Positions 1,241-13,651 of a stretch of DNA of 13,651 nt are shown here, piece by piece. A program made the translations under genes and the position numbers. Below the pieces are notes generated by a model that was not told where the DNA came from, did no database searches, and was given only the letters and a program-made list of their open reading frames with translations. This DNA is from a virus. Taxonomy: Duplodnaviria > Heunggongvirae > Uroviricota > Caudoviricetes. Numbering within the stretch: the first letter of the stretch is position 1; each line of letters begins with the position of its first letter. Where the stretch lies: IMG/VR virus record IMGVR_UViG_2654587685_000021. The stretch is one strand, 5' to 3'.

Positions 1241-1614
1241 AAGACCATCGGGGTAAAACGGTTTATGACGTGGCATCAGGGGACTCGTTATTTATTTCTG
1301 AACTCGGTCCATTACCGGAAAATGTTACCTGGTTGTCGCCGTATGGAGAGTATCAGAAGTGGAACGGCACATCCTGGGTGAAAGATGCAGAAGCAGAAAA
1401 ACTGTTTCGGATAAGGGAGGCGGAAGAAACAAAAAACAGCCTGATGCAGGTAGCCAGCGAGCATATTGCGCCACTTCAGGATGCCGTAGATTTGGATATT
1501 GCAACGGAGGAAGAGGCATCGTTACTGGCTGCATGGAAGACATACCGGGTATTGTTGAATCGTGTTAATACAGCGGTAGCAGCGGATGTTGAGTGGCCAG
1601 TCGCCCCACAATAA
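1241..1614 (+). pseudogene. Tail fibre assembly protein (Tfa / P2 gpG-like), 3' fragment; the 5' part is displaced by the IS2 insertion
   Basis: The translation after the IS2 end (..[64 protein letters not shown]...[13 protein letters not shown]...) matches the C-terminal two thirds of E. coli prophage Tfa proteins as I recall them. The listed ORF start at 1204 is inside IS2 and is an artefact. Confidence 0.75.
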
Positions 1615-1657: not shown

Positions 1658-2215
1658 CTATTTATACAATACAACACCGCTCTTTTTAGTTATATATGTG
1701 CAGTTCGATGGTATATCTTTATTTATAAAAGACATTGCACCTATTTTTACATTATCCCCAATTTTACGTGATAATCCAATGATGCAACAATTAGCTCCGA
1801 TATCAACGTTACTACCAATTTTTACTCTTGAACCAGGCATGTCACCATCTATCTGTCCAATGGTAGTATTCTGTCGTAACACCAGATTTTCACCAGCATC
1901 AACAGCAAAATGAACAACAATTCCAGCATGATGGGGAATTGTTAACCCTTTTCCAATATTTGCGCCCAATCCAATTTCACAACCAAATTTGTTAATTATT
2001 TTACTGTTTAACTTTTTGGCTGCTTTCTTATGTAATTTATTACCATTAATATACATTTCGTTAGCCAACCGCCACCAGAAAAGGAAATTCCGGTTACGCT
2101 GTTTTTTCTCTCTTAAAAGCCTCCAGATATCCATACGTTTCCGCCGAATTACTTCATATTTCCAGAAGTTTTTTAAATTAGTAGAGTCCCCAAATAAAAC
2201 AAAGTGAATTGCCAT
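1658..2215 (-). CDS. Hexapeptide-repeat acyltransferase, CysE/WcaB-like (serine or polysaccharide O-acetyltransferase family); AT-rich cargo gene
   Basis: The translation has the ...WWRLANEMYINGNKLHKKAAKKL... helix followed by a hexapeptide-repeat core (GCEIGLGANIGKGLTIPHHAGIVVHFAVDAGENLVLRQNTTIGQ...VKIGSNVDIGANCCIIG) like CysE and WcaB. The start is uncertain: ATG at 2215 or GTG at 2263 (the ORF-track start), neither with a good Shine-Dalgarno. The region is visibly AT-rich compared with the flanking tail genes. Confidence 0.65.
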   Translation of the reverse strand: MAIHFVLFGDSTNLKNFWKYEVIRRKRMDIWRLLREKKQRNRNFLFWWRLANEMYINGNKLHKKAAKKLNSKIINKFGCEIGLGANIGKGLTIPHHAGIVVHFAVDAGENLVLRQNTTIGQIDGDMPGSRVKIGSNVDIGANCCIIGLSRKIGDNVKIGAMSFINKDIPSNCTYITKKSGVVLYK

Positions 2216-2386
2216 TAAGTAAGACAGCACGATAATCTCCTTAATTATTATTTCAGACCACACATATTATAAGGTTAAGAGATTATAAAATCCTGTTGTT
2301 TGTTATTCAAAAACAATTTTCTGAGAAGGACATACAACAGCAAGTCGCCAGTCACCTTCATCAGGAAATTGGCGACATACGTTAAA

Positions 2387-9619: not shown

Positions 9620-10759
9620 GTGGGAAACAATAAAGTGAAATTAGGAAGAAATGATAAGTGCTGGTGTAATTCAGGACTTAAGTATAAAAAGTGCCATCTT
9701 GGTCGAGATCGTGAAACTCCGGTATCCAAAGCCGAGGCACTGAAATTTTCAAAGTCTCTCTCGCAGAGAAAGGCATGTTATGCGCCAGCATCCATGCACG
9801 AAGATTGTGATAAACGCATCGTTCAGGCGCATACGATATCTAAGAGCAGTAGCCTTAAGGCGATCGCCGACTCCAGCAATCACGTCATGGGGGTGATAAT
9901 GAACTTAGCAAGCCTGATGAGAAACAACGGAAAATGGCTTCCCGAGAAGATCGGTATCAATCAGGCATCCACTTTTACAGGATTTTGTGCAGTTCATGAC
10001 AGAATCTTATTTTCATGCCTAGAGAACGAAAAATTTACAGGCACGGACGAGCAGTGCTTTGCCTTAATGTTTCGTTCATTGTCTAAAGAAATTTATGCCA
10101 AAGAAGGGGGAGTGCTATCTTCTGATTTTGCTAAAAATGCCGATAAAGGAAAGCTACAAGTTGAACAGTATTATATTCAGAAATTAATCGACCAGCACCA
10201 AAGTGGCTTAAATGCAGCAATAATTGAATTAAATAATCTTAAAACTAGCCTCGACCGCATCCTACTTAGCAGGCAATTTTCAGAAATTGAAAGTGTTATC
10301 TTCACTTTTGCAGAGCCTTTACCAATTGTAGTTTCGTCAATTCTTTCACCGGAGAGGGATTTCGATGGGACCAAAATTCAGGATTTGAGCGATCTTACAG
10401 TGTCGGCGGAACAAGTATGTTTCAATGCTTTTTCCTGCGGAGGTAAGGGATATGTTGTGTTCAGTTGGCTGAGAACTTCAACAATTATCAGACGTTTTAT
10501 ACGGACACTAATTAAGATCCCAGCTAACAGGATGTTCAATACCCTTCTGTATTTTTTCTTCACAAAGGCCGAAAATACATATTCATCCCCTGAGTGGTGG
10601 GACAGGCTCAGTGATAAACAGCGAGAGAATATCGGCAACATGATTATGTCAGGGGTTGAATTTTTTGGCATACCTACATCACAGGTTGATCATTCCGTTG
10701 ATTATAACGCCGCTGCACTTGAAGAGATAACATGCAGCAACAACGAAATTTGCAGCTGA
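9620..10759 (+). CDS. Hypothetical 379-aa protein with an N-terminal SEC-C-type zinc-binding motif; AT-rich cargo gene between D and ogr (candidate anti-phage or accessory function)
   Basis: Residues 14-26, CWCNSGLKYKKCH, fit the SecA C-terminal SEC-C consensus (CxCxSGxKYKxC[H/C]). The rest has no domain I can name. The start is GTG at 9620; the frame opens at 9608 after TAG, and the first in-frame ATG would delete the motif. No clear Shine-Dalgarno. AT-rich relative to the tail genes. Confidence 0.7.
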   Translation: MGNNKVKLGRNDKCWCNSGLKYKKCHLGRDRETPVSKAEALKFSKSLSQRKACYAPASMHEDCDKRIVQAHTISKSSSLKAIADSSNHVMGVIMNLASLMRNNGKWLPEKIGINQASTFTGFCAVHDRILFSCLENEKFTGTDEQCFALMFRSLSKEIYAKEGGVLSSDFAKNADKGKLQVEQYYIQKLIDQHQSGLNAAIIELNNLKTSLDRILLSRQFSEIESVIFTFAEPLPIVVSSILSPERDFDGTKIQDLSDLTVSAEQVCFNAFSCGGKGYVVFSWLRTSTIIRRFIRTLIKIPANRMFNTLLYFFFTKAENTYSSPEWWDRLSDKQRENIGNMIMSGVEFFGIPTSQVDHSVDYNAAALEEITCSNNEICS

Positions 10760-11048: not shown

Positions 11049-11309
11049 ATGTTCCGTTGTCCGCTTTGTGGCGCATCTGCCCGAATCCGCACCAGTCGTC
11101 CGGAAAACGATTCAAACACTGTGCGGCAAAAGTATTACCAGTGTAACAACCTGGAATGCGGCGTATGCTTCTCAACACTGGAAGCTTTCCATAAATTCAC
11201 ATCAAAACACGCCTCCGGCGTTCACTCTTCGGAAGGTATCCCGTGGCATGAGCTGCCAGCTTCACACAGGGGAAACAATCAGATGAGTTTGCCTTTACCT
11301 CAGAATTAA
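11049..11309 (+). CDS. ogr: Ogr/Delta-family zinc-finger late transcription activator
   Basis: MFRCPLCGASARIRTSR....YYQCNNLECGVCF has the CxxC-(22)-CxxxxC arrangement and the N-terminal consensus I recall for P2 Ogr (MFHCPLC..A.ARTSR...YHQCQN..C). AGGGAGG lies 5 nt before the ATG. It sits at the prophage end as in P2. Confidence 0.85.
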   Translation: MFRCPLCGASARIRTSRPENDSNTVRQKYYQCNNLECGVCFSTLEAFHKFTSKHASGVHSSEGIPWHELPASHRGNNQMSLPLPQN

Positions 11310-11499
11310 CAGGCAGAATTGCCGGAGTAACAAAAAAACGATAGATTACCCGCGGGTGCCTTTCGGCTGATGGTCGGAGGAATACCCGAAGGCCGGATGT
11401 GGAAAGGCCCCGGAAAACATTTCTGTTTAACCGAGGCCCTAACATATCTACCTTAAGCAAGTGATAGGTTAGCGCCTCTCCAACAAAGGAGCAAGCGCT

Positions 11500-11640
11500 A
11501 TGTCGCAAAAATCGCTTACAGCCATCACGTTCTGCGTGACGGTAATCCTCATCATCTGGATGCTACACGGTTCGCTGTGTGAAATACGGATGAGCTTCTG
11601 GGGAGCGGAGTTTGCGGCGTTCTTACAGTGTAAGCAGTAA
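11500..11640 (+). CDS. Hok/Gef-family type I toxin (46 aa), absent from the ORF track
   Basis: ATG 11500 to TAA 11638-11640 encodes MSQKSLTAITFCVTVILIIWMLHGSLCEIRMSFWGAEFAAFLQCKQ: one N-terminal transmembrane helix followed by the Hok-family SLCE(I/L) motif and AAF(L/M). AAAGGA lies upstream; an in-frame TAG at 11470-11472 closes the frame. Confidence 0.7.
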   Translation: MSQKSLTAITFCVTVILIIWMLHGSLCEIRMSFWGAEFAAFLQCKQ

Positions 11641-11728
11641 GGAAACCGCGACGGGGGAGCAATCCCCCGTCAATCGGTTGCTAAGGTTGGCTGAAGTGGC
11701 ACCCTATCTCACAGACATGAACAACAAA

Positions 11729-11760
11729 CCCGCAGCGTAAGAACTGCGGGTTTTCTTTTT
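11729..11760 (+). terminator. Rho-independent terminator downstream of the hok-like gene
   Basis: CCCGCAG (11729-11735), an 8-nt loop, CTGCGGG (11744-11750), then TTTTCTTTTT. It is preceded by a second GC hairpin, GACGGGGGA-GCAA-TCCCCCGTC, which could be the 3' fold-back element of a hok-type mRNA. Confidence 0.6.
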
Positions 11761-11828: not shown

Positions 11829-12110
11829 TTACTCAGCATTCTCCTGCTTCCATTGCCGGATCATTTCATCGGTAACATCACCCTCATAACATACCACGTC
11901 ATACCCTCCATTACGGCTATATGCACTGCGTCCACCACATCTACTACCATTCCTTGCATGATTATAAGGACACGCACAATTGCCTGGATAAGATTCAATG
12001 GATTCTTTAATTATTTCTTTTTTGATCTGAGCATCAGACTTTCCTGTTGCTGCATATCCACTAAAAGATACTAAACAAAGGCAGATTGCCATTAATAAAC
12101 CACATCGCAT
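11829..12110 (-). CDS. Small secreted Cys-rich hypothetical protein (about 93 aa with signal peptide)
   Basis: The ORF is open to 12224, but the signal-peptide-like start MRCGLLMAICLCLVSFSGYAA|TGK begins at the ATG at 12110. The mature part has 6 Cys (..YPGNCACPYNHARNGSRCGGRSAY..VVCYEGD..). AT-rich. No family assignment from memory. Confidence 0.5.
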   Translation of the reverse strand: MRCGLLMAICLCLVSFSGYAATGKSDAQIKKEIIKESIESYPGNCACPYNHARNGSRCGGRSAYSRNGGYDVVCYEGDVTDEMIRQWKQENAE

Positions 12111-12412
12111 ACCGATACACTCTATTACTAACCAATCATAGCCCACATCATAAAATCGAGATGAGGAGTACAATACCTTTAACAAGAAGGTGTCATAACG
12201 ATAATATGTCGTGCAATTCATCAAAAAAAAGATCTATATCAAAGAGATAGAACTCTTATCAGCGCTTCAGACATCGGCATTCGAGGCAGCAGAAAAACAG
12301 TAAATCTGACGAATTTGCCTTTTCCCAAGATGTTGTCAGATTAAAAAGATAGATTAGCGCAGGTACCTGTTGGTGGATTGCAGGAGGAAAAATGAAGTCG
12401 AGTGAAAAAATC

Positions 12413-12474
12413 CCAGAAAAATTTTTGTTTAACAGAGGTCCTGGTTCACTATGCGAAATACGGAGGAGCTGCAG
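12413..12474 (+). pseudogene. hok-locus remnant: degenerate second copy with an internal deletion of about 127 bp
   Basis: 12413-12442 matches 11410-11440 (about 26 of 30) and 12443-12474 matches 11568-11600 inside hok (about 26 of 32), with the intervening hok start and transmembrane coding part missing. A 34-aa ORF at 12392-12496 with an AGGAGG upstream retains the GSLCEIR motif but has no transmembrane helix. Confidence 0.5.
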
Positions 12475-12580
12475 AAGAATTCTGCTTCATCCTTAGAGTT
12501 TAAACAGCACGTGCACTACCATTGTTTCTGCATATCGCCACACCATCGCCACTCTACCGCCATTGCACAAAATACAAATA

Positions 12581-12607
12581 CGAAAAAACCACCCGAAGGT
12601 GGTTTCA
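12581..12607 (-). terminator. Rho-independent terminator of the glyW-cysT-leuZ tRNA operon
   Basis: The minus strand reads AAACCACC-TTCG-GGTGGTTT followed by a T run, about 40 nt downstream of the leuZ 3' end. Confidence 0.7.
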
Positions 12608-12648
12608 CGACACTGCTTATTGCTTTGATTTTATTCTTATCTTTCCCA

Positions 12649-12735
12649 TGGTACCCGGAGCGGGACTTGAACCCGCACAGCGCGAACGCCGAGGGATTTT
12701 AAATCCCTTGTGTCTACCGATTCCACCATCCGGGC
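12649..12735 (-). tRNA. leuZ: tRNA-Leu (anticodon UAA)
   Basis: The reverse complement reads GCCCGGATGGTGGAATCGGTAGACACAAGGGATTTAAAATCCCTCGGCGTTCGCGCTGTGCGGGTTCAAGTCCCGCTCCGGGTACCA: 87 nt, long variable arm, encoded CCA end. Confidence 0.9.
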
Positions 12736-12747
12736 TCGGGAAGAAAG

Positions 12748-12821
12748 TGGAGGCGCGTTCCGGAGTCGAACCGGACTAGACGGATTTGCAATCCGCTACA
12801 TAACCGCTTTGTTAACGCGCC
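12748..12821 (-). tRNA. cysT: tRNA-Cys (anticodon GCA)
   Basis: The reverse complement reads GGCGCGTTAACAAAGCGGTTATGTAGCGGATTGCAAATCCGTCTAGTCCGGTTCGACTCCGGAACGCGCCTCCA: 74 nt, anticodon loop UUGCAAA. Confidence 0.9.
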
Positions 12822-12875
12822 AAATCCTTCAGGCCTTTCAGCCAGACATCCGCTTGAGGCCGATGTCTTTTAAAC

Positions 12876-12951
<76 letters not shown>

Positions 12952-13102: not shown

Positions 13103-13651
13103 TCACTGATCAAGCAAATCTGCACGCGCAGCGCTCAAATATTGCAACATTGACCACAGAGTCAGTACCGCAGCCACAAAGAAAAGTGCAATACCGGCGT
13201 ACTCAACCCAAATGTTCGGACGCCACAGCAGCCATGCCAACGCCACCATCTGGGCAGTGGTTTTCACTTTCCCAATCCAGGAGACGGCCACGCTACTGCG
13301 TTTACCCAACTCCGCCATCCATTCGCGTAGCGCAGAAATAATAATTTCACGGGCGATCATCGTTGCCGCCGGTAATGTCACCCACCAGCTGTGATAATGC
13401 TCGGTTACCAGCACCATGGCGATAGCCACGAGAACTTTATCTGCCACAGGGTCAAGGAAAGCACCAAACCGGGTACTCTGGTTCCAGCGGCGTGCCAGAA
13501 AACCATCGAACCAGTCAGTCACCGCCGCGACGCAGAAAATGAGCGCGGCGGCAAACGGCGACCAGGTGACAGGCAGATAAAAGACCAATACAAAGAATGG
13601 GATAAGGATGACACGGAACAGTGTAAGCAACGTAGGGATATTAAATTGCAT
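13103..13651 (-). CDS. pgsA: CDP-diacylglycerol--glycerol-3-phosphate 3-phosphatidyltransferase (phosphatidylglycerophosphate synthase)
   Basis: 182-aa integral membrane protein with the CDP-alcohol phosphatidyltransferase motif (DWFDGFLAR...[10 protein letters not shown]), recognised as E. coli PgsA. The ATG is at the last three bases of the window. It lies upstream of the glyW-cysT-leuZ cluster, as in E. coli. Confidence 0.9.

Follow-up and report, generated by a model that had tools for sequence, protein, structure and literature searches.

A dead relic of a second hok/sok unit probably lies beside the attachment site of a P2-like prophage at leuZ

The window analyzed here, the whole stretch of 13,651 nucleotides of viral DNA in IMG/VR record IMGVR_UViG_2654587685_000021, contains an intact hok/sok locus and, further downstream towards the tRNA gene leuZ, a second and shorter hok-like sequence. 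What is this second copy? It could be DNA that still serves a function, an older chromosomal locus beside which a prophage inserted, or a remnant in decay. Our analysis favors the last of these: with a probability of about 0.85, positions 12308-12503 are the dead relic of a second unit, made of the end of ogr and a hok/sok locus, carried by a P2-like prophage at leuZ, with a small cargo ORF on one side of it and the phage arm of attR on the other.

The right end of the window is chromosomal, with pgsA (13103-13651, minus strand) and the glyW-cysT-leuZ tRNA cluster (12649-12951, minus strand), in which tRNA prediction places the tRNA-Leu gene leuZ at 12649-12735 on the same strand. To the left of this cluster lies the right end of a P2-like prophage. 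The genome of E. coli SCU-105 is 100% identical to the window over the query, and its RefSeq annotation gives, in order, baseplate and tail genes, the tape measure, the tail tube and sheath, gpD, a 379-aa SEC-C-motif protein, ogr, Hok/Gef, a small hypothetical protein and leuZ. The remaining ~37 kb of the SCU-105 prophage comprise the capsid, terminase and replication genes, the repressor region and the integrase, and the integrase end adjoins yecA. The prophage is P2-like (Peduoviridae, Xuanwuvirus-like) and is integrated at leuZ. Its Ogr/Delta zinc-finger late activator gene, ogr, occupies 11049-11309 on the plus strand (Pfam Ogr_Delta, E=5e-14; so annotated by RefSeq in SCU-105), and the last ~10 codons of this gene form the start of the repeated unit, at 11282 in the intact copy. 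Integration is marked by an att block of 124 bp (12580-12703) that covers the leuZ terminator (12585-12606), the 3'ETS-leuZ trailer and the 3' 55 nt of leuZ. The block is repeated at attL next to int and yecA; comparison of the empty site of strain 536 with both SCU-105 junctions gives 123/124 identical positions for the repeat copy, at 20979-21102 of the SCU-105 locus L004.

Between the two hok copies lies a small Cys-rich ORF of 93 aa on the minus strand (11829-12110), whose N-terminus (MRCGLLMAICLCLVSFSGYAATG...) resembles a signal peptide or that of a lipoprotein; the annotation lists its product as hypothetical protein WP_001303543.1. A Pfam search gave no credible family, and 50,697 phage records contain no homologue. 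The nucleotide diversity of the ORF is low (π=0.025, with no indels; 0.037 in its upstream region), and even strain EDL933, which has lost the intact hok, keeps it. It counts as a prophage cargo gene yet to be characterised. We had considered that the ORF might be shared with phage P88, so that ogr, hok and ORF would move as one block, and rejected this as the two show no similarity.

The layout of hok/sok of plasmid R1, with its parts, the ends of Sok and the Sok promoter, served as template for the intact copy, and a general description of these systems is available in a survey of Hok proteins (bioRxiv 10.1101/2025.08.07.668861). This reference locus spans 11319-11753 on the plus strand and is identified by Pfam HOK_GEF (E=3.7e-7), Rfam sok (RF01794) and a terminator. 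It has a putative promoter (TTGCCG-17-TAGATT, 11319-11347), a leader from ~11354, an AAGGAG-AUG translation start (11487-11502), the Hok coding sequence (11500-11640) and a 3'UTR ending in a terminator found by a terminator scan (11726-11753), all on the plus strand. On the minus strand, a Sok-type antisense RNA with a 5' single-stranded tail, a 10-bp GC-rich hairpin and a U-tail would occupy ~11403-11462 and be driven by a promoter at ~11463-11497; both the ends of the RNA and the promoter are placed by analogy with R1 Sok. The Rfam sok match, at 11354-11510, starts where the leader does, lies on the plus (mRNA) strand and reaches 46.7 bits, below the gathering score of 59. The Sok hairpin folds at -26.2 kcal/mol (z=-4.6), and none of 200 shuffled sequences was as stable. 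The Hok protein (WP_000078920.1) is identical in six genomes, and π over its coding sequence is 0.007. The Peduoviridae Xuanwuvirus P88, Chuche, 500465-2 and P884B11 carry ogr and an intact hok locus that are 94-97.5% identical to those of the window up to ~11760, after which the sequences diverge. As an observation in passing, the intact locus lacks a canonical mok frame overlapping hok: its sole upstream ORF (11370-11456) ends 44 nt before the hok AUG, and the position that we take to be equivalent to the mok AUG of R1 reads AUA.

The initial annotation held that two segments of this locus recur side by side further downstream, and computed alignments bear this out. The first segment, 11410-11440, matches 12413-12442 at 25 of 31 positions with one 1-nt indel; the second, 11569-11600, matches 12443-12474 at 26 of 32 positions, with a core of 24/28 (11569-11596 against 12443-12470). 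The segments are indeed contiguous in the second copy, with two small corrections: the second starts at 11569 rather than 11568, and the missing stretch (11441-11568) measures 128 nt instead of about 127. The claim had been staked on whether the similarity exceeds chance, and it does, in the leader as well as in the coding region. In shuffles that preserved mononucleotide content only, the second block has a local score of 36 against 16.5±2.3 (maximum 30; none of 1000 shuffles reached 36), and the part upstream of it has a score of 66.5 against 21.0±2.7 (maximum 30; 200 shuffles). We relied on local alignments, since a global MAFFT alignment of the two loci misplaced the 128-bp deletion.

The homology is longer than had been described: it pairs 12308-12503 with 11282-11640 and takes in the last codons of ogr, the hok promoter, the leader and the C-terminal codons of hok. 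Over 12308-12442, from the end of ogr through the -10 box and the leader, 105 of 131 aligned columns are identical (~80%). The first part of the relic (12308-12344, plus strand) descends from the 3' end of a second ogr gene: it ends in NLTNLPFPKMLSD and a stop, where the intact ogr ends in NQMSLPLPQN and a stop, and 15 of 18 positions are identical between 11282-11299 and 12308-12325, inside the significant local alignment. Upstream of 12308, a tblastn search with Ogr gave nothing convincing. There follow, at 12345-12442 (plus strand, aligned to 11334-11440), the relics of the hok -10 box (TAGATT, 12350-12355) and of the 5' leader with its tac/mok region. As read from the sequence, an 18-nt gap shifts the -35 box compared with the intact copy and leaves the -10 box without a -35 at a workable spacing. 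Local alignments place the junction of the 128-bp deletion at 12442/12443, and its spacing is the same across copies. Beyond it, 12443-12503 (plus strand) are the remains of the C-terminal codons of Hok, starting with GSLCEIR; tblastn matches Hok residues 24-32 here at eight of nine positions. Past the second block, visual inspection extends the homology over a -4/+1 indel pair as far as the hok-homologous stop at 12501-12503 (EEFCFILRV and a stop, against AEFAAFLQCKQ and a stop in the intact copy). The repeated unit is therefore the 3' end of ogr plus the hok locus, and its second copy is 12308-12503.

What remains of hok/sok in this copy cannot work as a toxin-antitoxin system. The 128-bp deletion takes out the putative Sok promoter and the 5' tail of Sok, the ribosome-binding site and AUG of hok, and Hok codons 1-23, which encode the membrane helix. 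No Hok/Gef ORF of ~50 aa with an N-terminal transmembrane helix is left, and a 34-aa ORF that spans the junction has no Pfam match at E<=0.01, HOK_GEF included. On the antisense side there is no Sok gene with its own promoter, 5' recognition tail and terminator hairpin, the corresponding region of the intact copy (11441-11497) being deleted. The homologue of the Sok terminator folds at only -8.9 kcal/mol (z=+0.6), no better than shuffled sequence, and the plus strand of the relic gives no structural signal either (z=-0.6). Neither strand matches Rfam sok or any other Rfam family at E<=10. Promoter-like and terminator-like sites were also absent from both strands, in a scan that is insensitive and missed the probable promoter of the intact hok as well. 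Finally, the relic has no hok 3'UTR with a fold-back (fbi) element and an intrinsic terminator: its end shows no homology to 11641-11760, no terminator precedes that of leuZ, and ~30 nt separate the hok-like stop (12503) from the first repeat of the attP arm (12534). Homologous to hok loci but without any of the features that make one work, the relic is an unannotated hok/sok pseudogene, and it most likely does nothing today.

The ORF across the junction (12392-12496, plus strand) had been put forward as a fusion of a new N-terminus to GSLCEIR behind a strong AGGAGG. The open frame, the AGGAGG and the in-frame GSLCEIR are all there; however, the AGGAGG is the homologue of a CGGAGG in the intact leader, and the fusion is peculiar to the allele of the window. 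Seven aligned alleles from complete genomes include five in which the ORF is disrupted. The changes include a start codon turned from ATG to ATA in EDL933, a -1 frameshift in WP7-S18-ESBL-09, a +1 frameshift leading to a stop after 13 codons in three alleles of ~86% identity, and a 7-nt deletion in FDAARGOS_1288. The frame is accidental and not conserved, and the RefSeq genomes listed have no annotation over the relic or this ORF. Lost starts, frameshifts of ±1, the 7-nt deletion and a high π leave no trace of purifying selection on a coding frame.

The diversity of the whole relic points the same way. Among 22 unique sequences spanning ogr to leuZ, which represent a few clades only, π in the relic is 0.081-0.102, with indels, similar to the hok 3'UTR (0.104) and the spacer (0.131), against 0.066 in the attP arm, 0.006 in the att block and only 0.007 in the intact hok coding sequence. 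The remains of the Hok codons (12443-12503) have a π of 0.102 and indels in 7 of 61 columns. When the window is compared with TW10828, the relic is the most diverged stretch, and two complete genomes, UTAK-4 and EC13, have IS3 and IS1 insertions inside it. These patterns fit neutral drift of a sequence that would be under no selection. The initial view, namely a decaying copy that has no membrane helix and is improbable as a working toxin, is thus supported by the deletion of Hok codons 1-23, the lack of a HOK_GEF match and the spacer-like diversity. This end of the prophage is in general a hotspot of IS elements: an IS30 replaces ogr and hok in EDL933, and an IS3 truncates the small ORF in O145 RM8988-C1.

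A sequence that encodes nothing may still be kept as DNA. The relic directly abuts the phage-side arm of attP/attR (12504-12579), which sets its outer limit, and its length stays nearly constant (~290 bp) even among alleles with 14% divergence, a possible hint of a constraint on spacing. Moreover, the leuZ terminator and the small ORF flank it, on the strand that is transcribed in the tRNA operon. It might therefore be retained for recombination or regulation, as an outer attP arm with sites for Int, IHF and Cox, or as a spacer or 5'UTR of the small minus-strand ORF. We consider this improbable. The arm holds an array of ATCGCCAC, ATCGCCAC and ACCGCCA, at 12534, 12545 and 12556 with a spacing of 11 bp, and the arm-type motif is confined to 12534-12562, outside the relic; it is absent from 12308-12503. 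Judging from sequence, the array represents candidate arm-type binding sites of Int that would define an attP of ~270 bp. A single ATCGCCAC occurs on the int-side arm (at about position 20883 of L004), and the 8-mer is found nowhere else on this strand of the window. The arm at 12504-12579 is near-invariant across alleles, and the same array stands beside a terminator and, by eye, an apparent tRNA 3' end in another locus (L054), and in non-coding-looking sequence in two others (L055 and L060). With the arm-type repeats outside it, the relic was rejected as a part of attP. As for a spacer or 5'UTR, its π of 0.08-0.10 is at the level of spacers and above that of the arm (0.066) and of the region upstream of the small ORF (0.037), and the IS3 and IS1 insertions in it persist in complete genomes.

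It is a little less probable still that the relic works through an RNA or a peptide, be it a Sok-like antisense RNA, a decoy for the Sok of the neighboring locus, or the 34-aa peptide translated from the AGGAGG-ATG. The window allele does have a good Shine-Dalgarno sequence and ATG, the -10-like TAGATT is conserved in both copies, and the class of alleles at least 99% identical is common (358 genomes). However, the start is lost in EDL933, the frame is broken in other alleles and IS insertions are tolerated. The plus strand lacks a structural signal, as mentioned above, and the suggestion of the initial annotation that the copy could encode an antisense regulator fares poorly, given that the putative Sok promoter and 5' tail are deleted, that the residual hairpin no longer folds stably, and that neither strand has a promoter-like or terminator-like site or an Rfam match. 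A decoy would retain, of the target of the neighbor's Sok, only the part of the terminator hairpin, at ~80% identity, and would lack the segment recognized by the tail. Activity in a looser sense is very unlikely: a short transcript of the leader, or antisense read-through from the strongly expressed glyW-cysT-leuZ operon, would have to modulate the intact hok/sok or the small ORF, or the 34-aa peptide of the common allele class (at least 99% identical) would have to be made. Were the relic not inert in this way, it would be a domesticated fragment of a type I toxin-antitoxin locus.

The genomic distribution of the relic bears on whether it belongs to the phage or to the chromosome. It lies ~77 bp from the att block on the phage side, between attL and attR, which makes it prophage DNA, in the cargo region that follows gpD and ogr and is enclosed by the att direct repeats. 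It was found in 643 of 5,426 complete E. coli genomes, the others matching the query only from ~12575-12583 onward, and it was seen only together with this end of the prophage. Genomes with other elements at leuZ, such as a siphovirus-like prophage or IS-rich islands, do not have it. The deletion spacing (71-73 nt) is shared by all 31 IMG/VR contigs that have the relic leader, and wherever such a contig extends far enough, the leuZ context is the same too; the junction spacing also agrees between both allele classes of the relic, and no copy looked at in detail departs from this deletion. That the relic is an older chromosomal hok locus beside which the prophage inserted, as had been envisaged, is scarcely credible: it is the element closest to leuZ and E. 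coli chromosomes carry several hok loci (according to the introduction of bioRxiv 10.1101/2025.08.07.668861), but it sits on the phage side of the 124-bp att block, ~4,780 of the 5,426 genomes have leuZ without it, in the unoccupied site of strain 536 the yecA promoter region is followed directly by the leuZ terminator, and the first part of the relic is an ogr 3' end, a piece of a phage gene, which excludes a chromosomal origin on internal evidence too. This corrects the idea of a resident chromosomal hok locus at leuZ.

How could a phage come to hold the relic of a second ogr-hok unit? We propose that its lineage once had two ogr-hok ends in tandem, which could have arisen in two ways. A deletion or illegitimate join between two related P2-like genomes, for example in a tandem double lysogen at leuZ or through a swap of the int/att module, may have placed them side by side; the joint on the right would then lie within the 3' end of the second ogr. 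The other route would be a tandem duplication of old date whose distal part was later lost. The proposal of a decaying duplicate is thus upheld as to the decay, while duplication is only one of two possible origins for copies that are ~72-80% identical. Neither an undeleted relative nor a donor Ogr turned up in the collections to favor one route over the other. In phages, blastn gave no undeleted relative at E<=1e-5 and only neighbor-type (Xuanwuvirus) hok loci at E<=10; in plasmids, it returned only two very large replicons, both with the same relic; and in E. coli genomes, two partial matches (H94 and H95) are copies of the relic interrupted by IS elements. Pattern scans for an undeleted relative found none in genomes nor, with a gap of ~179 nt, in viral contigs and metagenome contigs, the one match in a metagenome being an unrelated coding region. 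A tblastn search with the ogr-like C-terminal peptide of the relic found no donor Ogr.

Whatever the route, a single 128-bp deletion would then have cost Sok its promoter and 5' recognition tail and, at one stroke, hok its translation start and membrane helix. For a redundant type I locus to disappear without harm, the toxin has to be inactivated before the antitoxin or at the same time, and a deletion across the Sok promoter and the hok start has just this effect; no other kind of single event would disarm both parts and spare the host. The event must be old, as the copies are ~72-80% identical and alleles of the relic differ by up to 14% and yet share the deletion. Later losses, such as the spacing of the promoter -35, small indels and the 3'UTR, would have occurred under no selection, and the relic would persist because it is wedged between two selected elements, namely the promoter and upstream region of the small ORF and the attP arm. 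If so, the relic is a tidy example of the safe death of a type I toxin-antitoxin system, by one deletion that spans the antitoxin promoter and the toxin start. Missing from annotations so far, it also records an earlier recombination or duplication at the ogr-att end of P2-like phages. It also calls for caution in annotation, as an ORF containing SLCEIR at this place should not be called a Hok/Gef gene. We found no description of the relic in the literature. Hok is enriched in prophages, and a few percent of the phages that carry it encode two copies; the survey reporting this was based on peptides and would have missed the relic (bioRxiv 10.1101/2025.08.07.668861).

Comparison with known systems places the relic among decayed members of a familiar family. 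It is homologous by descent, in its leader and in the C-terminal GSLCEIR, to hok/sok (parB) of plasmid R1 (PF01848 HOK_GEF; RF01794), but lacks the toxin start, the membrane helix, the Sok promoter and 5' tail, a stable Sok hairpin, the 3'UTR and the terminator. Its closest relatives in the phage collection are the intact hok loci of Xuanwuvirus P88, Chuche, 500465-2 and P884B11, annotated as MokW-like host killing, with ~72% identity over 100 nt followed by 89% over 28 nt. They occupy the same position relative to ogr and att, whereas these phages have one intact hok and no relic, diverge completely from the window past the hok terminator and use a different att. In E. coli K-12, Pedersen and Gerdes reportedly described in 1999 that hokA, hokC, hokD and hokE are disrupted by IS elements or rearrangements. 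These are likewise decayed and non-killing genomic fossils. However, most of the K-12 loci still have the Hok ORF and owe their silence to a nearby IS, whereas the relic is prophage-borne and lost the toxin start and the antitoxin gene in one deletion. A further parallel is the P2-like remnant at leuZ in E. coli O157:H7, known as CP-933T in EDL933 and Sp13 in Sakai. The EDL933 remnant has the same small ORF, relic and attR at 99.3% identity; it has an IS30 in place of the intact hok, whereas the window has the full ogr-hok unit and SCU-105 a complete prophage.

Some further features of this prophage deserve mention. The att block extends past the tRNA to include the whole 3' trailer and terminator of leuZ, that is, the 3'ETS-leuZ RNA, which sponges RyhB and RybB (Lalaouna 2015, as cited in PMC13501541). 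Since the block spans the trailer and terminator, the phage carries its own copy of the sponge in attP. Integration regenerates an intact leuZ with its 3'ETS and leaves an orphan trailer with a half-tRNA beside yecA. The 379-aa protein with an N-terminal SEC-C motif (9620-10759, plus strand), annotated as belonging to the YecA family, is a moron between gpD and ogr that is missing from the TW10828 version of the prophage; that a prophage adjoining chromosomal yecA carries a YecA-family moron may be a coincidence of naming. At the other end of the window, a full-length match to Rfam IS009 (1379-1577, plus strand; 192 bits, E=6e-47) falls within the 3' portion of the gene for tail-fibre assembly. 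Just past that gene, on the opposite strand, annotation with coordinates mapped from locus L001 places a serine O-acetyltransferase gene (1658-2230, minus strand), which is probably another lysogenic-conversion moron.
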